NCBI GenBank assembly: GCA_934500865.1
Contig: CAKSUD010000001.1
Span: forward strand, 1,509-65,508
Reading direction: 5' to 3'
Length of the DNA stretch: 64,000 nucleotides
From: an uncultured Clostridia bacterium
GTDB lineage: Bacteria > Bacillota > Clostridia > TANB77 > RGIG9151
The translations under genes were made by a program, and so were the position numbers. The notes beneath the pieces were generated by a model that saw nothing but the letters and a program-made list of their open reading frames with translations, was not told the origin of the DNA and searched no databases. How positions within the stretch are numbered: position 1 is the first letter of the stretch; every line of letters begins with the position of its first letter. Below, in pieces: positions 1 to 54,429 of the stretch.

Positions 1-1375
1 AACGATACTTCGTGACGGACATCAATCGCTTATTGCGACAAGAATGACTACTGATGAGATGTTACCTGCATTAGAAAAGCTTGATGCTATTGGGTATAAT
101 GCATTAGAATGTTGGGGCGGTGCTACATTTGATGTATGTATGAGATTTCTAAAAGAGGATCCGTGGGTAAGACTTAGAAAGATCAGAGAAACAGTTAAAA
201 ATACGAAGCTACAAATGTTGCTTCGTGGTCAAAATTTACTTGGATATAAAAATTATTCGGATGATGTTGTTGAGTATTTCGTTAAGAAATCTATTTCAAA
301 TGGAATAGATATTATTAGAATATTTGATGCATTAAATGATTTTAGAAATATTGAAACTGCAATAGAAGCATGTAAACATGAAGGTGGACACGCCCAGGCA
401 ACTATATGCTATACAACAAGTCCGGTGCATACAATAGATGGATTCGTGGAAGATGCAAGGCGTTTATATAATATGGGCGCGGATTCTATATGTATTAAAG
501 ATATGGCGGGAATATTACTTCCGTATACTGCTTATGAGTTGGTTAAGAGGATAAAAGAATATGTTAATTTACCTATTGAACTTCATACGCATTATACTGC
601 AGGTACTGGTTCAATGACTTATCTAAAGGCTATTGAGGCGGGTTGTGATATAATAGATACAGCACTTTCTCCATTTGCGTTAGGCACTTCACAGCCTTCT
701 ACCGAAGCAATGGTAGCAACACTTAATGGAACACAGTTCGATACAGGACTTGATTTATCTGCTTTTGCTGATGTTTCTAACTATTTTAATGGAATTAAAG
801 AAAAGTATATACAAAATGGAATGCTTGACTCTAAAGTTATGTCGGCAGATTCAAATGTGCTTATTTACCAGGTACCTGGTGGAATGCTTTCTAATTTAGT
901 TTCACAGTTAAAACAACAAAATGCGATGGATAAGTTTAATGAGGTATTGGCGGAAGTGCCTAGAGTTCGTGAAGATATGGGATTTCCTCCTTTGGTTACG
1001 CCTACAAGCCAAATTGTAGGTACACAGGCTGTGTTAAATGTAATTATGGGCGAGAGATATAAAATGGTTACAAAGGAAACAAAAGGTTTGGTAAGAGGAG
1101 AATACGGAAGGACTCCTGTACCTATTTCAGAGGAAATAGTGAAAAAGATTATTGGAGATGAAACTGTTATTAGTTATAGACCGGCTAATCGAATACCACC
1201 GGAGCTTGATAAAATGCGCAAAGAAATGAACGAATATTTTGAGCAGGATGAAGATGTTTTGTCTTATGCATTATTTCCTAATATTGCATTAGATTTCTTT
1301 AAGCTAAGACGCGCAGAAAAATATGGGATAGAATCAGAATTTACTGATTTTGAAAATAAAGTAACAATTGTATAA
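1..1375 (+). CDS. Oxaloacetate decarboxylase alpha / pyruvate carboxylase subunit B-like carboxyltransferase (5S-type), 5' partial, no biotinyl domain
   Basis: In-frame upstream codons read TILRDGHQSLIATRM, continuing the conserved OadA/PycB N-terminus, so the gene is truncated by the window edge. HMGL-like fold (LRDGHQS, ECWGGATFD). The protein ends about 443 aa, before any AMKM biotin-attachment lobe. Confidence 0.8.
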   Translation, partial: TILRDGHQSLIATRMTTDEMLPALEKLDAIGYNALECWGGATFDVCMRFLKEDPWVRLRKIRETVKNTKLQMLLRGQNLLGYKNYSDDVVEYFVKKSISNGIDIIRIFDALNDFRNIETAIEACKHEGGHAQATICYTTSPVHTIDGFVEDARRLYNMGADSICIKDMAGILLPYTAYELVKRIKEYVNLPIELHTHYTAGTGSMTYLKAIEAGCDIIDTALSPFALGTSQPSTEAMVATLNGTQFDTGLDLSAFADVSNYFNGIKEKYIQNGMLDSKVMSADSNVLIYQVPGGMLSNLVSQLKQQNAMDKFNEVLAEVPRVREDMGFPPLVTPTSQIVGTQAVLNVIMGERYKMVTKETKGLVRGEYGRTPVPISEEIVKKIIGDETVISYRPANRIPPELDKMRKEMNEYFEQDEDVLSYALFPNIALDFFKLRRAEKYGIESEFTDFENKVTIV

Positions 1376-1389
1376 GAGGAGTTAAATTT

Positions 1390-3015
1390 ATGGGCAAGTT
1401 TTTTGGATTTAATGAAAATTATGTGGGATTATCTGATAATGAGGCGTGGCTTAGAGTTTATGACAAAGGTAAAAATTTAATGCCTATAAAAAACAAAAAA
1501 ATTCAACACAAATATAATAATATGTTTAGAAAAAAGACTAAAGTTATAAGAAGTGGAATTTCAAAATCCGTAAAAACAGATTGCCTTGTTCCAGAGGATA
1601 TAATTTTAGTTGAAAAAGGCGATTTTGTGCCTGTTGATGGTATTGTTTTAGAGGCAAACAATCTTTATATGGAAAATGATATTTGTTTTAATTCTGCTAA
1701 CATTGAAGTTGGAGAACAATATTATGATAAAGATAAGCCAGTTTACCAAGGAATGAAAGTAAAGTCTGGCAAGGGGTTAATTAGAGCAGAAAAAACCGGT
1801 ACTGAGACTTTACTTGGAGAACAGATAAAAGAAATTGATTTATTTAACAAAAAGGAAAGTAAGACTGCGAAGAAGTTTCTCGTTTTTTCAGGAATATTAA
1901 CAATTATACTATTTTTTATTGCTATTGGCACTCAATTCTTTAATTCTAAAGATTTCGGAATTGCTTTAAAATATGGTGTTATAATGCTTATTGCAGCTTT
2001 TCCGGTTAGTTTTTTAATTACAGTATTTATAAGAGTGTTTATGCAGTTAGATATTTTTAAGAAATTCGGGCTTGTATTGAAAAACAAAAATTATTTATTT
2101 GATTTTAGGAAATTAGATATTATTTGCATAGATAAGAAATTTCTTATTCAAGATTTTACAAAGTACATTCAAGATATCTTTAATGCAGGAATTAGGGTTG
2201 CCGTTATTAGTGATACTTCTTTGGAAGATACATTAAAATCAGCAAACGAAGCCGGAATTGACACTAAAAATACGACATATTTTTCGGGTGACGAACTAGA
2301 TAGAATGGAAGAAGAGGAATATGTAAAGGCAATATGCGAAGGAATAATATTTTATAATATAAGTCATAAGCAAAAAAGCAAAATGATAAAAATATTTGAA
2401 GAAGTAAAAATAAATGTGTTATGTGCCGGAGACGGGATAGAGGATTTAGCAAGTATATGGGAAGCATATATCGGACTTTCAAGCAATAGGACTAAAAGGA
2501 GTATAGATAGAGGCTTAGCTGATTTACTAATATCCGGCAATAATTTTTCAGCGGTATATAGACTAATAAAGAGCAGAATAGAATTTAGAAAGATGATTAT
2601 TTCAAACTTTAAGTTAAATATTGCCTTCCAAATTCCATTGATGTTTTTGACGCTATTTGCAGTTGTAAACAACATTGGCATTTTAAGTTTTGTTTTTCAT
2701 CTTTTAGCGTTGGAGCTTATAATTATTCCACTATTATTGATGTTTTCTACTAAAGGCTATAGTGAAGAAGAAATATTTGTTCCGTATGAAAATGAGTTAG
2801 GAATAAAGAGCGTTGCTAAAATGGCTGGTTTTGGCTTAATTATCTTAGCTATTTTGGCTGTCGGTTATGTTGGACTAAATGTTTTAATTAAGAATGATAT
2901 TATAAATGTAAGTATTGTTACTGTAGTGCTTGCGATATTCTATTGGGTATGTATTAGGTTAAATCAAAAGGTAGTTAAAAAGAATACTAAAATAGAAGAA
3001 CAAACCATAATTTAA
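1390..3015 (+). CDS. P-type ATPase-like membrane protein with degenerate catalytic motifs (putative pseudo-ATPase)
   Basis: RBS GAGGAG precedes the start. The actuator-like segment (VYQGMKVKSGKGLIRAEKTGTETLLGEQI) lacks TGES. About 6 TM helices are present, including a PEGL-like AAFPVSFL helix. DKTGT is replaced by ICIDKKF, and the N-domain is absent. The hinge GDGxND reads CAGDGIEDLAS. Confidence 0.55.
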   Translation: MGKFFGFNENYVGLSDNEAWLRVYDKGKNLMPIKNKKIQHKYNNMFRKKTKVIRSGISKSVKTDCLVPEDIILVEKGDFVPVDGIVLEANNLYMENDICFNSANIEVGEQYYDKDKPVYQGMKVKSGKGLIRAEKTGTETLLGEQIKEIDLFNKKESKTAKKFLVFSGILTIILFFIAIGTQFFNSKDFGIALKYGVIMLIAAFPVSFLITVFIRVFMQLDIFKKFGLVLKNKNYLFDFRKLDIICIDKKFLIQDFTKYIQDIFNAGIRVAVISDTSLEDTLKSANEAGIDTKNTTYFSGDELDRMEEEEYVKAICEGIIFYNISHKQKSKMIKIFEEVKINVLCAGDGIEDLASIWEAYIGLSSNRTKRSIDRGLADLLISGNNFSAVYRLIKSRIEFRKMIISNFKLNIAFQIPLMFLTLFAVVNNIGILSFVFHLLALELIIIPLLLMFSTKGYSEEEIFVPYENELGIKSVAKMAGFGLIILAILAVGYVGLNVLIKNDIINVSIVTVVLAIFYWVCIRLNQKVVKKNTKIEEQTII

Positions 3016-8355: not shown

Positions 8356-10140
8356 ATGAAAAAGTTGGGATATTTAAAAAATATTTTATTTAATTCAGCT
8401 ATTTTGATATTAACATTTATAGCGGTAGTGTTAATAGTTTCTTCGAGCCTATTATTAATGCATATTAATATCTCAAAAGTATCTTTTATAGTATCAGGAG
8501 TTATTACATTAGCGGTATATTTTCTTATATACCGCTTTTTGCGTTTAAAAAAATCGGAGAGCACATTGGCTGAGAATGTTGGTGGGGCAATACTTGGAAT
8601 ATGTGTTTTTTTCATTTCATTGTTTGTTTGCACACAAATTTACGATTTGGCACACGATAGCAATTGGTATCATAAGGCTGCAATAGGATGTATGGCTAAT
8701 GGTTGGAATCCTTGTTATGAAAACATTACTGAGTTTGGTAGCCGTTCTAAAATAGGAATAGGGAATTTACCTGACTGTGGGATTTGGGTTGAACATTATT
8801 GCAAGGCTTCGTGGATTTTTGGTGCTAATGTATATTCGATTACCGGAGACATTGAAACTGCTAAATCAATTAATATATTGATGGTATATGTGTTATTTTG
8901 CTTTGCTTACTGTATATTATCTAAATACCTTAAAAATTGGCAGTCTATTATAATTGCTGTGCTTTTAACATTTAACCCGATTATATTGTCTCAAGTTTTT
9001 TCCCTTTATATAGATAATTTGTTGATGACAACATTATTTGTTATTGTACTTTTATTGGCAGATATAACATATAAAAAAGAATTTAATGATGTAAAAAAGA
9101 TTAACTTTTTAGCATTATTCTCGGCAATAGTTATTTGTATAAATATAAAATTTACCGGATTAGCATATGCGGGGATTTTTTGCTTTATCTTTTACTTAGT
9201 GTGGTTAGGTATTAGCATAAAAGATAAGAACTTTAAAAAGGTATTTATTTGGATGACTGCTTTTTATTTAGTTACATGCATAGTAGCAATAATTTTAGTT
9301 GGATTTTCTAGCTATGTAAAGAATTTTGTTGAGCATGGGCATCCGTTATATCCTCTTGCTGGTGAAGGAAAAGTAGATATAATGACGGGTAACCAGCCAT
9401 CATCTTTTGATAATATGATTGGAGTAAAAAAACTTATTTATTCTGTATTTTCAGAAACAGATAACATAGTTGGGGATGGAAGAAGTCCTAAACTTAAAGT
9501 TCCATTTAGGGTAAGTGAGTATGAAAAGGAAATATGTAAAAAGGGAGCGGATATAAGAATTGCTGGATTTGGTCCTCTTTTTAGTGGAATCTTATGTGTT
9601 TGTGCGCCGATTATATTATACGGATTGTTTTATTTATATAAAAAGGATAAAGAATGGTTTTGTATATATTTAACTTTACTTTGTATAATAGGTGGAATGC
9701 TACTTTTAATTCAAGAGAGCTGGTGGGCAAGATATTCGCCATATTTTTATCTTGTACCTTTAATGGCACTTATGATATTATTTAGCATATGGAACAGCCA
9801 AGGAAAAAGTGGTTTTGGTATAACTGGTTTGGGTATTTCTATTGTTTTAAGTGCGATTATATTTTTTAATAGTACATATTTTATGGATTATCCGATAAAT
9901 TGCAGAAAAGAAACGATAACTATTAAAGAGAATTTGGCTAAGGTTAGTGAGATTTCTAAGAGTCAGAGAGTGAATATTAAGTTTTTTACCTATGCTTATT
10001 ACGGGTTAGAATTTAATTTTAGAGATTATGGAATAAATTATAAGATTGTTGGTAGGACAACCGGAGAATTAGTACCGGTTTATGGTAAAATGGCTGAAAT
10101 GGAGGTAATTTACAATGAAGAAAATTTGCTCAATAATTAA
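8356..10140 (+). CDS. Polytopic membrane protein, GT-C-like (putative polyprenyl-phosphate-sugar dependent glycosyltransferase, AftB-like position)
   Basis: 594 aa with about 11+ TM helices. An Asp-containing first loop (YDLAHDSNWY) and a C-terminal soluble domain. Lies 30 nt after pyrH and overlaps the UbiA-like gene. Confidence 0.35.
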   Translation: MKKLGYLKNILFNSAILILTFIAVVLIVSSSLLLMHINISKVSFIVSGVITLAVYFLIYRFLRLKKSESTLAENVGGAILGICVFFISLFVCTQIYDLAHDSNWYHKAAIGCMANGWNPCYENITEFGSRSKIGIGNLPDCGIWVEHYCKASWIFGANVYSITGDIETAKSINILMVYVLFCFAYCILSKYLKNWQSIIIAVLLTFNPIILSQVFSLYIDNLLMTTLFVIVLLLADITYKKEFNDVKKINFLALFSAIVICINIKFTGLAYAGIFCFIFYLVWLGISIKDKNFKKVFIWMTAFYLVTCIVAIILVGFSSYVKNFVEHGHPLYPLAGEGKVDIMTGNQPSSFDNMIGVKKLIYSVFSETDNIVGDGRSPKLKVPFRVSEYEKEICKKGADIRIAGFGPLFSGILCVCAPIILYGLFYLYKKDKEWFCIYLTLLCIIGGMLLLIQESWWARYSPYFYLVPLMALMILFSIWNSQGKSGFGITGLGISIVLSAIIFFNSTYFMDYPINCRKETITIKENLAKVSEISKSQRVNIKFFTYAYYGLEFNFRDYGINYKIVGRTTGELVPVYGKMAEMEVIYNEENLLNN

Positions 10141-10981
10141 ATTGATGCGTCCACATCATTATATAAAAAATGGCTTGTTATTTTTACCGCTTGTTTTTAG
10201 CGGAAATTTATTAAATAAAGACTTCCTTATTGTATTAATGATAGGCTTTTTGGCTTTTTGTCTTTCTTCATCAGTTATTTATATAATAAATGATATTTTT
10301 GATGTGGAAAAAGATAAATTGCATCCTAAAAAATGCAAAAGACCAATAGCATCGGGTGAAATTTCAATTAAATTTGCTTGGGTTTTAGCTATTTTATTAC
10401 TAGCAGTAGTTGTGGCATTAAATTACATTATTGCAAGTAACAACATTGGTGCTTGGGTACTTTTAGGATTATATATTGTGCTAAACTTTGCATACAGTAT
10501 GGGATTAAAACAAGTACCGTTATTAGATATTGCAATATTAGTTTCTGGATTTTTAATTAGAGTCTTATATGGAGCAAGTATAATAAGTGTTGTTGTTTCT
10601 AATTGGCTATACTTAACTGTAATTGCTATGGCTTTTTATTTGGGATTAGGAAAAAGAAGAAATGAAATGGCTAGACAGGGAAGTGATACAAGAAAAGTTT
10701 TGCAATTTTATAATTATAATTTTCTAGATAAGAATATGTATTTGGCTAATGCACTTACAATTGTTTTTTATTCGCTTTGGTGTGTTGATGCCGGAACTAT
10801 TGCGAGATTTTCGAACAAATTGATTTGGACAGTTCCACTAGTTATGCTAATAAGTATGAAATATAGCTTAAATATAGAAGGAAATTCAGATGGAGACCCT
10901 GTTGATGTGGTATTGAGTGATAAGATTTTAGTAGTGTTAGCTATGATTTATGTAATTTCGATATTAATTCTTACGTATTAA
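10115..10981 (+). CDS. UbiA-family prenyltransferase, decaprenyl-phosphate phosphoribosyltransferase (DPPR synthase)-like
   Basis: RPHHYIKNGLLFLPLVFSG plus the NDIFDVEKD (NDxxDxxxD) motif. Polytopic, 288 aa. Start overlaps the end of the upstream gene. Confidence 0.65.
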   Translation: MKKICSIIKLMRPHHYIKNGLLFLPLVFSGNLLNKDFLIVLMIGFLAFCLSSSVIYIINDIFDVEKDKLHPKKCKRPIASGEISIKFAWVLAILLLAVVVALNYIIASNNIGAWVLLGLYIVLNFAYSMGLKQVPLLDIAILVSGFLIRVLYGASIISVVVSNWLYLTVIAMAFYLGLGKRRNEMARQGSDTRKVLQFYNYNFLDKNMYLANALTIVFYSLWCVDAGTIARFSNKLIWTVPLVMLISMKYSLNIEGNSDGDPVDVVLSDKILVVLAMIYVISILILTY

Positions 10982-47308: not shown

Positions 47309-48706
47309 ATGGAAGGGAATGATTACTTAATGCAAAGTGAAGTTATTTCTGATGCAAGAAAAGTATTGGGCGATTTGCTTGATGAGAAAAGTTTTGTAGA
47401 AATTTTAGAAAACTATGATTTGGGTGTTATATGTGGATATGGCACTATAAATTTACGTCCTGTTTGCGTTTTTGCTCAGGAGCATACGGTAGATAATGGT
47501 GCTGTTAACGAGAAAAATTGTGAAAAGATTTGTAAAATCATTGATATGGCTATGAAGAATGGCATTACTATAATTGGTATTTATGATTCTATGGGTGTAA
47601 AGATTGATGAGAGTTCAAGGGTCTTTCTAGGAATTAGAAAAATGCTTGATAAGATGGCATTAGCTTCGGGGGTTGTTCCTCAGATTTCTGTTGTTTTAGG
47701 CAGTGCTGTTGGAGTTGCGTCTTTTGCAGTTAATTTCAGTGATTTTGTGTTTATGATTGATAAAAAGAGTCAGATGTTTGTAAATGGTCCGCAAAGTATA
47801 ATGGCGGAAGAGGGAAATGAAGTGACGGCAGAGGAACTTGGAGGAGCTATGGTTCATTCTGAAAAGTCAGGAATGTGTGATGTAATAGTTGCTTCAATAG
47901 AAGAGTGTACTAAAAAGGTGAAAGAACTTTTGGATTATTTACCTGACAATAATTTGGCGGATGTTTATGTTACAGATAGTGATGACTTAAATAGAGAATG
48001 TGACGAATTAGATAATGGAATTGAAAACAACAGAGAAGTTGTTTTTGCTATAAGTGATGAAAATAAATTTTATGAAATAAAGGCTGAGTTTGAAAAAAGT
48101 GTAATAACAGGATTTTCAAGAATTGGCGGAAGAGTAAGCGGAATAGTGGCGAATGTTCAAAGGACACTAAATTCTAAGTCAATAGAGAAGATTATAAAAT
48201 TTGTTAGATTTTGTGATGCTTTTAACATACCGATTGTGACATTGGTCGATGTTGAGGGGACAAAGATTAGCACTGATGAGGAAATGAACGGTATTTCAAG
48301 CAAATTAGCTAGACTTATTTATTCATATTCTGATGCGACTGTTCCAAAGATAGATATTATTATAGGAAATATGTTTGGAGGAGCTTCGACTGCAATGGGA
48401 GCTAGTCCCGATATAACTTTGGCATGGGATAGTGCTAAAATATCTGTGGCATTGCCTAAAGTTGCAGTTAATGTAATATATAGTAATGAAATTTCAGAGG
48501 CGGAAGAGCCTGTTAAGTATAGAGAGGAAAAACTAAGTGAGTACTTAGGGAATGAGGCTATACCGGAAAAAGCAGAGGAAACATCTTTTATAGATGGAGT
48601 AATTAGACCTAGTGAAACTAGAAAAAGAATTATAAATGCTCTTGAATTATATATAAGCAAGAGGGAAATTAAGATAAACAAGAAGCATAGCAGTATGCCT
48701 TTTTAG
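47309..48706 (+). CDS. Acyl-CoA carboxyltransferase (PccB / MmdA / transcarboxylase 12S-like), short form
   Basis: Both CT halves are present. Oxyanion region LGSAVGVASFAVNFSDFVFMIDKKSQMFVNGPQSI ... EELGGA. Confidence 0.75.
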   Translation: MEGNDYLMQSEVISDARKVLGDLLDEKSFVEILENYDLGVICGYGTINLRPVCVFAQEHTVDNGAVNEKNCEKICKIIDMAMKNGITIIGIYDSMGVKIDESSRVFLGIRKMLDKMALASGVVPQISVVLGSAVGVASFAVNFSDFVFMIDKKSQMFVNGPQSIMAEEGNEVTAEELGGAMVHSEKSGMCDVIVASIEECTKKVKELLDYLPDNNLADVYVTDSDDLNRECDELDNGIENNREVVFAISDENKFYEIKAEFEKSVITGFSRIGGRVSGIVANVQRTLNSKSIEKIIKFVRFCDAFNIPIVTLVDVEGTKISTDEEMNGISSKLARLIYSYSDATVPKIDIIIGNMFGGASTAMGASPDITLAWDSAKISVALPKVAVNVIYSNEISEAEEPVKYREEKLSEYLGNEAIPEKAEETSFIDGVIRPSETRKRIINALELYISKREIKINKKHSSMPF

Positions 48707-48717
48707 GAGGAAAGTAA

Positions 48718-48894
48718 GTGTATAATATAAATATTTTGAATGATGTAAATGATGATAATTTACGAGTTGCAATTATTTCTGCGGTTACAGAAATGATGAC
48801 CGGAGAAAGTAATTTAAATGTTACTAGAATGAAAAGAGGAAAATTAGAATCGCCTATTTGGAATGCGATTTTAAGACAAGATAACTTAAAATAG
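48718..48894 (+). CDS. Small protein (58 aa) between carboxyltransferase and biotin carrier, possibly decarboxylase epsilon/delta-like; not in track
   Basis: AGGAGG RBS followed by a GTG start. Sequence MYNINILNDVNDDNLRVAIISAVTEMMTGESNLNVTRMKRGKLESPIWNAILRQDNLK. Confidence 0.25.
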   Translation: MYNINILNDVNDDNLRVAIISAVTEMMTGESNLNVTRMKRGKLESPIWNAILRQDNLK

Positions 48895-48937
48895 TCTCTA
48901 CTTAGCACTAATTAGTAATAAGAAAGGATGAAATGGT

Positions 48938-49327
48938 ATGGAAAAATTTCTTAAAGTTACTGTAAATGGTACGGTGTATGATGTTAAGGTTGAAGAAGTA
49001 AAACCTGGAGAAATAAAGGTGGAGGAAAGTGTAGCTCCTGCTAAAGTTCAAGAAACGAAACCTCAAGTAGAACAACCTAAACCGGCAGAAAATAAAGTTG
49101 CACCCACTTCTGGAAATATTAAGGTTCTTGCACCGATGCCGGGCAATATATGGAAGATAAAAACATCTATTGGTGCTAAGGTTGAAAAACACGAAGTATT
49201 ATTAATTTTAGAGGCAATGAAGATGGAAAATGAAATTGTTGCGCCTGAGGCAGGAACGGTTACTAACATTTTAGTAAAAGAGGGAGATGCCGTAGAACCG
49301 GGAAAAGTAATGGTTGAAATGGCATAA
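48938..49327 (+). CDS. Stand-alone biotin carboxyl carrier protein (1.3S / MmdC / GcdC-like)
   Basis: MEKFLKVTVNGTVYDVKVEEV ..., a Pro/Ala/Glu linker, and the EAMKMENEI biotinyl-lysine motif. Confidence 0.8.
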   Translation: MEKFLKVTVNGTVYDVKVEEVKPGEIKVEESVAPAKVQETKPQVEQPKPAENKVAPTSGNIKVLAPMPGNIWKIKTSIGAKVEKHEVLLILEAMKMENEIVAPEAGTVTNILVKEGDAVEPGKVMVEMA

Positions 49328-49376: not shown

Positions 49377-49402
49377 CGATAGCCGTAAGGCTATCGTTTT
49401 TT
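49377..49402 (+). terminator. Rho-independent terminator CGATAGCCgtaaGGCTATCGTTTTTT
   Basis: 8-bp stem followed by a T-run. Confidence 0.75.
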
Positions 49403-49534
49403 GTTTAAGATAGTAATGAATTTAGATATTTTTACTATAACTAAAAATTGCTATTTAACAGGTTTTATATTTGACGCATTTTGTCTTTTGTGATAAAATA
49501 TCTAAGAACTTTAAATTGGAAGGAGAGTTATATT

Positions 49535-52471: not shown

Positions 52472-53560
52472 ATGAGTTATAAGGTAAGTGTTATTGTACC
52501 AATAAATAATGTTGCCAAATATTTAGGTGAAGCTTTAGATTCTTTAATTAATCAAACTATTGGCACTGATAATTTACAAGTAATTATGGTAGATGATGGT
52601 TCTACAGATGAAAGTACTAAAATTATGAAGCGATATGCAAGGGAAAATTCAAATTTTGTGGATATATATTTGCCGGTTGCTAGTGGAGCTGCTGGTAAGC
52701 CTAGAAATGTCGGAATTGACTCTGCCAAAGCTGATTACGTTATGTTTTTAGATCCGGATGATTATTATGCTCCAGATGCATGTGAAAAAATGTATAATAC
52801 AATAACTAAGGAAAAGGTGGATATTGTTACTGCAAATTACAAGTATATGGATGAAGATGGAACAGTATGGGATAAACCTGTGTTTGATACAAAGAGATTT
52901 ACAAATTTCAAGTTCGGAATGAGGAGCTTTAATGAATCATTTTTTATATGGAATTCTTCTGTGTGCAACAAGATTTTTTCTAAGAAGGTAATTGATGAAA
53001 ATAATATAAGATTTTTAGAAGGGGTTCCGGGTGAAGATGCATATGTTTCTTATGCGACATTACTTAATTCGGAGAGTGCATATTTTATAAGTGATACAAT
53101 TTATTATTATAGAAGAAGGAGCAATAGTGGTACACTTTCTGTTTCTTGGAATAGGTCAATAGGCTATTTTGAAAAGATAAACTATGCATATAAAAAGATA
53201 TATGAACTTTTTGAAAAGAATAACAAGCTTGATTTGTTTAGATACTTTTATTCCAAAACACTTACATCTGTTTTTTATAAATTGGTAGATACTAATCTTA
53301 TGACTGATGAGGAAAAAATTAAAATATTAGAAGAAATGGCATGGTTATATAATTTAAGAGATAAACTTAAAATTGAGCCTTGCCAAAAATCATTAAATGC
53401 AGTTTTTAATTTGGTTAGGGAGCAAAAATATAAAGAAGCTGTAGATGTTTGCAAGATTATTGCGGAAATGAGAACATACATTCCTAAGGACATACGTGAG
53501 AATATGTCAAAACCTGAGAATGTTAAATACGAAGAAGTTGGAGCAAGTGATAAAAAATGA
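52472..53560 (+). CDS. GT2 glycosyltransferase
   Basis: VSVIVPINN ... MVDDGSTD ... FLDPDD motifs. Confidence 0.75.
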   Translation: MSYKVSVIVPINNVAKYLGEALDSLINQTIGTDNLQVIMVDDGSTDESTKIMKRYARENSNFVDIYLPVASGAAGKPRNVGIDSAKADYVMFLDPDDYYAPDACEKMYNTITKEKVDIVTANYKYMDEDGTVWDKPVFDTKRFTNFKFGMRSFNESFFIWNSSVCNKIFSKKVIDENNIRFLEGVPGEDAYVSYATLLNSESAYFISDTIYYYRRRSNSGTLSVSWNRSIGYFEKINYAYKKIYELFEKNNKLDLFRYFYSKTLTSVFYKLVDTNLMTDEEKIKILEEMAWLYNLRDKLKIEPCQKSLNAVFNLVREQKYKEAVDVCKIIAEMRTYIPKDIRENMSKPENVKYEEVGASDKK

Positions 53561-54429
53561 TTGACTTACATGTACATACTTATTGTTCAGATGGTGAACA
53601 TTCACCTGAAAAGACCGTAGAAATTGCAAAACTTTCGGGTATAACAGATGTTGCGATAACCGACCATGATACTTGCACAGGTGTAGAAAGGGCAATGATA
53701 AAAGGCAGAGAAATTGGTATAGAGGTTATACCTGGAATAGAAGTTACAGCTTATGAGAGTGAGGAAATCCATGTTTTAGGCTACTATGTTAATTATAAGT
53801 CATCTAAGCTTGATGATTATGCAGAACTATTAAAAAAAGACCTTAAAAATGAGGAGAATATAATATTTGACACATTTCATGAATTGGGATTTGAAGTTAC
53901 CAGAGATGAAATTATCGAAAAATATGCTATGGGTACATCGATTGCACCGGGGCACTTTGTTGATTGGCTTATAGATAATGGGTTTGAGAGTAATAAAAAG
54001 TCTACATATACTAAATATTTTAGAAATGGGAAGCTTGCTCATAGAAAAGCAGATAGAATGAAAGTTAGCGAGGCAGTTAAGTTTATTAAGAGTATTGGTG
54101 GAGTACCTGTTTTGGCTCATCCAATAAGAATAAGTTGGAATTTAAAACAGCTTGTATCAAATATAATAGAATTGAAAGAATATGGTTTGATGGGGTTAGA
54201 AGCAATTTATAGTATGTCTGATGAGGATAGTATTAGAGAACATATGAAAATTGCTAGGAATACTGGACTTTTAATTACTCTTGGAAGTGATTATCATGGG
54301 CATAAGGTTAAGGACTATATCGATATTGGTTATGGTGAGAGAAATAGTCTAGTTAAGTATCAAGATGTGAAGTTAACTAATAGAATTTTACATGAATTGC
54401 GTCAAAATGAATTAAGTATGATTATATAA
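53557..54429 (+). CDS. PHP-domain phosphoesterase (TrpH/YciV-like)
   Basis: MIDLHVHTYCSDG ... AITDHDT ... LAHP ... GSDYHG motifs. Overlaps the GT2 gene by 4 nt. Confidence 0.7.
   Translation: MIDLHVHTYCSDGEHSPEKTVEIAKLSGITDVAITDHDTCTGVERAMIKGREIGIEVIPGIEVTAYESEEIHVLGYYVNYKSSKLDDYAELLKKDLKNEENIIFDTFHELGFEVTRDEIIEKYAMGTSIAPGHFVDWLIDNGFESNKKSTYTKYFRNGKLAHRKADRMKVSEAVKFIKSIGGVPVLAHPIRISWNLKQLVSNIIELKEYGLMGLEAIYSMSDEDSIREHMKIARNTGLLITLGSDYHGHKVKDYIDIGYGERNSLVKYQDVKLTNRILHELRQNELSMII

Follow-up and report, generated by a model that had tools for sequence, protein, structure and literature searches.

A 64,000-nucleotide stretch of contig CAKSUD010000001.1 from an uncultured Clostridia bacterium (hereafter, the window) encodes the parts of a split biotin-dependent system: a short acyl-CoA carboxyltransferase (CT), a 58-aa protein and a free biotin carrier, encoded together, and a biotin-less 5S/OadA-type carboxyltransferase at the window start (Table 1). 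With moderate confidence, we read this set as a dispersed, soluble, pump-less complex of the transcarboxylase type. Two carboxyltransferases of different specificity that share one free carrier, with no energy-coupling module, correspond to the definition of a transcarboxylase. The anchorless form of the 58-aa protein argues against a hidden membrane pump, and a carrier that is not of the AccB type, partnered by an OadG-type tail, argues against a classical ATP-dependent carboxylase. Three elements are new here: a clade of short CTs, the recognition of the tiny open reading frame (ORF) as an anchorless OadG tail correlated with the absence of a pump, and the placement of the 5S gene in a separate operon, an arrangement conserved in the lineage. 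A preliminary description of this DNA had correctly placed three ORFs in 47309-49327 and an OadA/5S-type gene at the window start, and had read the set either as a transcarboxylase of the 12S/5S/1.3S kind or as a Na+ decarboxylase without its pump subunit. The transcarboxylase architecture gained support from the anchorless tail, from a Pseudobacteroides operon and from a proposal made for Clostridium thermocellum. The label methylmalonyl-CoA:pyruvate that came with it finds no support, as neither the window nor the 5S-linked clostridial operons examined have a mutase or epimerase context, the cut-off of the mmdA model was failed and the active-site loops of the CT are altered.

The survey covered the 64-kb window and its flanks (including 8.6 kb upstream), that is, a part of the genome. 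Pfam scans and precomputed Pfam tables took in nearly all window ORFs of at least 140 aa, and genuine sequences of beta subunits (three), biotin carboxylases (two) and OadG (one) served as tblastn queries in all six frames. Neither a biotin carboxylase nor a beta pump subunit (PF03977) was found by Pfam or tblastn in any frame of the window, or in the 8.6 kb upstream; the OadG query had no match in the window, and the Pfam scans and tables revealed no methylmalonyl-CoA mutase there. A six-frame motif scan of the 64 kb, together with tblastn, found a single A-M-K-M biotin site. Two earlier statements are thus borne out, namely that the EAMKMENEI sequence of the carrier is the sole biotin-attachment motif in the 64 kb and that the window holds no biotin carboxylase or beta subunit. 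Other contigs and operons used for comparison are referred to as L001 and so on; no beta subunit lies beside the module of CT, small ORF and carrier in any of the loci examined from the short-CT clade (L003-L009, L136 and L213). By Pfam, the gene content of the window is made up of housekeeping, cell-wall, sporulation and tRNA-synthetase genes, and the host is a spore-forming, flagellated Firmicute, metagenome-assembled, whose DNA has 32.7% GC.

The 58-aa ORF is a real, conserved gene. Its homologues form at least 27 protein clusters, all of 58-62 aa, it is 52-59% identical across the short-CT clade, and its ratio of nonsynonymous to synonymous substitution rates (dN/dS), computed like the others below against the close relative L213 (dS ~0.5), is 0.097. 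The protein has no Pfam (including PF04277) or NCBIfam match at E values up to 10 and no PDB profile match; its homology rests on a purpose-made family profile applied to neighbouring-gene positions only. Apart from very few other matches, that profile picked out the ORF directly 3' of the canonical CT in six Bacillota operons. The matched ORFs encode 90-146 aa, in which a hydrophobic helix at the N-terminus is followed by a low-complexity linker and then by a tail of the form EELIAVITAAIAASL...VRSIRRI...SPVWN..GR; in L012 the matched ORF is PF04277 OAD_gamma by Pfam and the gene two positions on is OAD_beta. The window protein corresponds to the tail part alone, with no hydrophobic segment, and aligns with a 62-aa ORF of Pseudobacteroides (L091) at 30% identity. 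Across all comparison loci in which a tail-homologous ORF directly follows the CT, the tail is preceded by a hydrophobic segment in nine of nine beta-containing operons and in none of the four beta-less ones, so that loss of the anchor tracks loss of the pump. AlphaFold2 (AF2) predicted with confidence a single helix (residues 13-28) and hardly anything besides, which suits a peptide that folds on a partner, and the protein is a probable assembly subunit. Weak tail-like matches were also seen at the C-terminus of a larger protein after the CT gene in L016 (7385-9052; E 0.011) and at the C-terminus of a 518-aa 5S-type subunit after the carrier gene in L021 (7853-9406; E 0.15). The weak match in L021 may mean that the OadG tail is sometimes fused to another subunit.

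The 5S-type gene, cut by the window edge, is complete in L001, a longer contig of the same organism, where it encodes 465 aa and lies downstream of thyA-folA. The full protein has no biotinyl domain, in agreement with the preliminary description, which had noted that the OadA-like protein ends before one. Its Asp, carbamyl-Lys and His-x-His metal ligands are intact and align with those of 5S (1rqb) and OadA (2nx9). The protein scored 798 bits against NF008985 (the 465-aa OadA type), above the cut-off of 718, and did not reach that of the 5S model NF008984 (566 versus 827 bits); its PDB matches were PycB 5ks8 (532 bits), OadA 2nx9 (530 bits) and 5S 1rqb (470 bits). Its identity to the 5S genes of clostridial sets encoded as single operons is 65-72%; the nearest named relatives, from Pseudobacteroides and a "Clostridia bacterium", reach 72-73%, and the 5S gene of the relative L092 is 85% identical. 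At least two further assemblies have the CT and 5S genes on a single contig. The 5S gene is immediately followed (1390-3015, + strand) by a gene for a 541-aa P-type-ATPase-like protein, with a PF00122 actuator/transmembrane part and a C-terminal transmembrane part, which has DKKFL in place of the phosphorylation motif DKTGT and apparently no nucleotide-binding domain. This protein is conserved in L001 and L002, is absent from that position in L092, and is probably a non-catalytic relic.

The window set appears homologous to a beta-less four-gene clostridial cluster and would work like it. In Pseudobacteroides sp. (L091), a CT, the anchorless 62-aa ORF, a 130-aa carrier and a 464-aa 5S-type protein (72% identical) occur likewise without a beta subunit; there, unlike in the window, a single operon contains all four genes, and the CT has the canonical 516 aa and is 42% identical to that of the window. 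L014 and L021 contain beta-less operons similar to L091. The same four parts without beta are found in C. thermocellum (Acetivibrio; Clo1313_1523-1526 / Cthe_0699-0701), also in one operon, unlike the window. What sets the window apart from both is the distance of 46 kb to its 5S gene and the shortening and strong divergence of its CT. One gene of Clo1313_1523-1526 is OadA-like and another carries the annotation "sodium pump decarboxylase gamma"; the carboxyl transferase of the cluster, Cthe_0699 in strain ATCC 27405, is abundant and was seen in native gels at ~220 kDa and >880 kDa. Oxaloacetate decarboxylase activity was not detected in C. thermocellum. The builders of metabolic models of this organism found no acetyl-CoA carboxylase (ACC) or biotin carboxylase and gap-filled with carbamoyl-phosphate synthase. 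Because the organism lacks ACC, the cluster was proposed to form malonyl-CoA, and it was recruited in a metabolic model as a putative transcarboxylase for this step; its function is thus itself proposed, from annotation and metabolic models.

The transcarboxylase of Propionibacterium freudenreichii (12S/5S/1.3S, EC 2.1.3.1; PDB 1on3, 1rqb and 1dcz) resembles the window set in combining two CTs of the same two families with a small free carrier, and in needing neither ATP nor a membrane part. The parts of such an enzyme can all be recognized in the window: a CT of 12S/propionyl-CoA carboxylase (PCC)-beta fold, a biotin-less 5S-type protein with an intact metal site and a small free carrier. The differences are also clear, since 12S matches the window CT at only 271 bits, the cut-off of NF008984 is unreached, an OadG-tail subunit is added, the genes are unlinked and there is no propionate-pathway context.

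The carrier, with its EAMKMENEI motif at 49211-49237 (biotinyl-Lys codon 49220-49222) and a ribosome-binding site AAAGGA, matches the MmdC models and the C-terminal third of the OadA models over its whole length, and the AccB model only weakly (39.6 versus 115 bits). Its N-terminal motif M-x-K-F/Y...VNG..Y.V.VEE is common to carriers of beta-linked and beta-less operons, with the VNG..Y.V.VEE part invariant among the related operons; among its PDB matches are an MmdC-like protein of Pyrococcus, OadA and the 1.3S biotinyl domain, and its dN/dS is 0.064. The carrier is of the MmdC/OadA/1.3S type and not of the AccB type. Other features of AccABCD are lacking as well, as the CT scored 31 bits against the accD model (cut-off 317) and 42 bits against accA (cut-off 319), and the window has no AccC. 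One could still envisage one or more ATP-dependent carboxylases in which a distant biotin carboxylase charges the carrier, which then serves the CT and/or the 5S-type protein, the latter as part of a subunit-type pyruvate carboxylase. Among solved structures, the 5S-type protein is indeed closest to 5ks8, the beta chain of a pyruvate carboxylase made of two subunits, and the CT mostly to beta subunits of PCC/ACC enzymes; a biotin carboxylase could moreover be encoded outside the 64 kb and flanks. We regard this explanation as unlikely, since no such gene is present in any frame of the window or in the flanks, and the carrier, with its OadA-like N-terminal segment, is of the decarboxylase/transcarboxylase type. 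Moreover, the OadG-tail partner occurs, among the loci compared, only in decarboxylase-type and 5S-linked beta-less operons, and C. thermocellum, with the same four parts, yielded no biotin carboxylase to its model builders.

The gene order also matches that of Na+ pumps. Na+-translocating methylmalonyl-CoA decarboxylases include MmdADECB of Veillonella and MmdADCB of Propionigenium. Operons of this type in L011, L013 and L018 share with the window the order CT, OadG-like gene, carrier gene as well as the type of carrier, and differ from it in possessing the beta pump (PF03977) and a membrane-anchored OadG-like subunit; in L013, unlike in the window, methylmalonyl-CoA mutase genes adjoin the CT operon. 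The window has no PF03977 subunit and no anchored OadG/MmdD-type subunit. Membership in the methylmalonyl-CoA-specific family (EC 2.1.3.1/MmdA) is not indicated either, as the CT reached only 398 bits against the equivalog-level mmdA model TIGR01117, with a cut-off of 999, and the window has no mutase. No mutase was found near the 5S-linked clostridial operons examined, whose contexts are housekeeping. The oxaloacetate decarboxylase of Enterococcus faecalis (OadA/OadB/OadD/OadH) is like the window set in its biotin-less OadA, separate carrier OadD and small OadG-like OadH, and in that oadA is encoded apart from the carrier gene, NF008985 being the model of this type of OadA; it is unlike it in having the OadB pump and a citrate-fermentation locus, and in lacking an acyl-CoA carboxyltransferase. 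In two metagenome-assembled genomes of Clostridia (L012 5893-10936 and L015 5887-11045), a single operon runs CT, OadG with a transmembrane helix, carrier, OAD_beta and 5S-type gene. This arrangement would be that of a Na+ pump in which one carrier serves two alternative carboxyl-donor subunits, and the order looks like the ancestral state from which the beta-less sets (L014, L091 and the window) could derive.

A Na+-translocating decarboxylase acting on methylmalonyl-CoA and/or oxaloacetate, with its beta pump encoded elsewhere, would agree with the mmdA-D-C order of the module, with the joint CT-OadG-carrier-beta-5S operons of L012 and L015, and with the true pump of E. faecalis, in which OadA is separated from the carrier OadD. 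We nevertheless consider it improbable, because the membrane helix, which accompanied the beta subunit throughout the comparison operons, is lost here, and because no beta subunit was found in the 64 kb and flanks or beside the module in the clade loci examined.

The CT that would complete the soluble transcarboxylase-type complex is a shortened member of its family. Its likely true start is ATG 47330 (MQSEVIS, 458 aa), as the equivalent ATG is used by most clade members, and its short N-terminus is not a start-codon artefact, because only nine codons precede the first ATG in the stop-to-stop frame. The deficit of 51 aa relative to the canonical 516 aa is made up of 21-28 aa at the N-terminus and internal deletions of 15, 7, 4, 3 and 1 aa; the unusual shortness (465 aa) had been recognized from the start, and only the assignment of the whole loss of ~50 aa to the N-terminus needed correction. 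The best solved relatives are 1vrg (320 bits) and the 12S structure 1on3. An AF2 model (pLDDT 88) superposed on PCC-beta, glycolyl-CoA carboxylase and 12S structures with TM-scores of 0.90-0.92, so that a 12S/PCC-beta fold is predicted with confidence. Assignments of the CT as an AccD-type ACC, a malonate decarboxylase or GcdA were ruled out on model score, and the CT is clearly not of the AccD type, which would have spoken against the preliminary description.

A word-index homology search delimited a discrete clade of such CTs, of 455-476 aa and at least 50% identity, marked by four main deletions. Scores in this search fall from 472 to 373 bits at a 477-aa intermediate (P0039), followed by the canonical 516-aa enzymes at ~41% identity. 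The clade has a single representative in an exhaustive library of 1.84 billion cluster representatives, and the reference-genome scan with mixed alignment from which the comparison operons were drawn returned, among the matches listed, only canonical CTs at no more than 41% identity. Scanning metagenome contigs with a degenerate DNA pattern of the clade N-terminus gave at least two true matches (L136 and L119), of which L136, long enough for gene context, has the same gene order as the window module. A neighbour-joining tree did not place the clade inside any canonical subgroup; it occupies a long branch of its own, with P0039 as sister. In five other short CTs (P0039, P0311, P0315, P0325 and P0331; 445-477 aa, 39-45% identity), the N-terminal helix is likewise missing, the 15-aa insert is lost entirely or for the most part, and the DSGGAR and AGGA motifs are degenerate. 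As the exhaustive library contains other short, divergent lineages at 39-42% identity, shortening would have occurred more than once, and short, divergent CTs seem to have arisen repeatedly.

The rate of change of the CT stands out. It is 40-42% identical to the CTs of canonical clostridial operons, which are 62-77% identical among themselves (5S, 65-82%). Within the short-CT clade, CTs share 50-56% identity, as compared with 59-72% for the carrier and 66-77% for PBP, MurE, MraY, FtsW and PolA. The dN/dS of the CT is 0.109, versus 0.040-0.055 for seven neighbouring housekeeping genes, which points to purifying selection relaxed about two-fold. The window CT is thus a derived form and belongs to a narrow, fast-evolving clade of short CTs.

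In the mechanism that we propose, the 5S-type subunit would transfer the carboxyl group of oxaloacetate to the biotin of the 129-aa carrier, with release of pyruvate, and the swinging carrier would take it to a hexameric CT, which would carboxylate an acyl-CoA; the overall transfer would be reversible and use no ATP. The acceptor would most likely be acetyl-CoA, whose carboxylation would yield malonyl-CoA for lipid synthesis, in line with the proposal for C. thermocellum. This pair is favoured by that precedent, by the housekeeping setting of the genes and by the missing mutase context, with propionyl-/methylmalonyl-CoA as the alternative. The Propionibacterium transcarboxylase appears in metabolic engineering with the reaction acetyl-CoA + oxaloacetate <-> malonyl-CoA + pyruvate. 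The 58-aa protein would be the remnant of an OadG/MmdD anchor that lost its membrane helix and kept the tail, which ties carrier and carboxyltransferase together in pump complexes. The assembly of the four proteins, the direction of flux and the acyl-CoA substrate are all parts of this scheme that we infer. All four parts are intact, and the CT, the small ORF and the carrier are under purifying selection (dN/dS 0.064-0.109).

Several observations weigh against this interpretation. The 5S gene lies 46 kb from the module in a different operon (thyA-folA), so that the functional coupling is deduced from complementarity and from other genomes. With 64 kb and flanks covered, the genome could encode a beta subunit, a biotin carboxylase, an ordinary accABCD or a second carrier elsewhere, and the searchable literature yielded no assayed enzyme of this clostridial type. 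The most serious concern is the CT itself. When 38 clade members were compared with 160 canonical CTs, about 50 positions conserved at 90% or more in the canonical enzymes were found to be replaced in the clade. The replacements cluster in active-site loops and include PccB G183 (V/I in the clade), the DSGGAR motif and an otherwise invariant Arg, which makes both the activity and the substrate of the CT uncertain. Canonical NDSGGARIQEG becomes YDS[M/I]G[A/V]KIDE in the clade, GPCAGGAVYSPA becomes GxAxG[I/V]A[T/S]FAV, PGxxPGxxQE becomes [D/E]Gxx[V/I]SxxEE and RKAYGGAY becomes GKAFGGA[N/S/G]. In PDB alignments, PccB Gly182/Gly183 correspond to G135/V136 of the window CT, Gly419/Ala420 to G358/A359 and Asp422 to T361. 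The pairs Gly182/183 (N-domain) and Gly419/Ala420 (C-domain) are reported in structural work on PccB and 12S (Diacovich et al. 2004) to form the two oxyanion holes through their backbone amides; on this assumption, one of the four oxyanion positions is now beta-branched (V136). The remodelled loops may leave room for a changed substrate or reduced activity. A prediction of the CT substrate from the Asp422 position was discarded, as this position varies among true PCCs (Val in 3n6r, Ile in 1vrg).

Taken to the extreme, these changes would mean that the short CT is catalytically impaired or repurposed (as a scaffold or for another substrate), with the module a decaying remnant and the 5S-type protein independent of it. 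The altered loops, the doubled dN/dS, and a CT that has diverged much further than the 5S-type protein and, within the clade, than the neighbouring housekeeping genes would fit; we judge it improbable, since purifying selection is still strong (dN/dS 0.11), the Gly-Gly-Ala pair of the C-domain and ~50 family-invariant residues are retained in a confidently predicted fold, the module has been kept with intact frames across a clade differing by 50%, and other short, divergent CT lineages exist.

Beyond the transcarboxylase-type assignment, we tentatively suggest, as a possibility on the low side, that the short CT is neo-functionalised, with its oxyanion and substrate loops remodelled, and that the set either is the sole, ATP-independent source of malonyl-CoA in a lineage without ACC or carboxylates another acyl-CoA. 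If the proteins of the window work in the way proposed above, they would add to C. thermocellum a second, independent lineage in which fatty-acid synthesis is fed by carboxyl transfer from oxaloacetate and not by the ATP-consuming ACC; we found no test of this idea in the literature searched, where it lives in metabolic models. The association between loss of the OadG helix and absence of beta also offers a simple sequence marker by which annotators could tell soluble sets of the transcarboxylase type from Na+ pumps; at present, either kind usually receives the label "oxaloacetate decarboxylase" or "methylmalonyl-CoA decarboxylase." Finally, the short-CT clade indicates which near-invariant positions can change under selection, which is useful for engineering carboxyltransferases.

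Table 1. Features of the split carboxyltransferase system and its transcription unit in the 64-kb window.
Feature	Coordinates	Strand	Details
Biotin-less OadA/5S-type oxaloacetate/pyruvate carboxyltransferase	2..1375	+	PF00682 + PF02436; last 457 residues, 5' end cut by window edge
Short acyl-CoA carboxyltransferase, 12S/MmdA/PCC-beta family	47309..48706	+	PF01039, E 7e-101; 465 aa from first ATG
58-aa anchorless homologue of OadG/MmdD-type C-terminal tail	48718..48894	+	GTG start 8 nt after GGAGG
129-aa free biotin carrier, decarboxylase/transcarboxylase type	48938..49327	+	PF00364, E 5e-19
Intrinsic terminator	49377..49406	+	8-bp stem with 5 G-C pairs, then T run; ends CT-small ORF-carrier unit

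The CT start lies 8 nt downstream of the stop of a dCMP deaminase gene, and the three-gene module forms the tail of an mraZ...murE-mraY-ftsW-polA-slt-(dcd) cluster. The synteny of mraZ...slt-(dcd) is kept in every longer contig examined that carries a member of the short-CT clade, and the module persists with intact frames although clade members differ by 50%. Its position at the end of a conserved housekeeping cluster across the clade fits a constitutive role. No riboswitch or other RNA was found near the module with Rfam. Downstream of the terminator, lysS has its own promoter-like site (TTGACG-17-TAAAAT, 49471-49499). The mechanically called lysS ORF begins at TTG 49481; this site, together with a GGAAGGAGAG site, indicates that translation really starts at ATG 49535, in agreement with the 487-aa calls in L213 and L010.

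Two further regions of the window deserve mention. A GT2 glycosyltransferase at 52472-54429 is only 47% identical to its counterpart in L213 (15258-17080), with a dN/dS of 0.28, while the genes flanking it are 92-99% identical between the window strain and L213. The gene after it encodes a PHP-domain protein in the window and is replaced by an S6PP/Hydrolase_3 gene in L213, and this region is a strain-variable surface-glycan spot. At 8356-10140 (+ strand), a 594-aa ORF with no Pfam match overlaps by 26 nt the start of a UbiA-family prenyltransferase gene (10115-10981), and the same pair is also called in L001.

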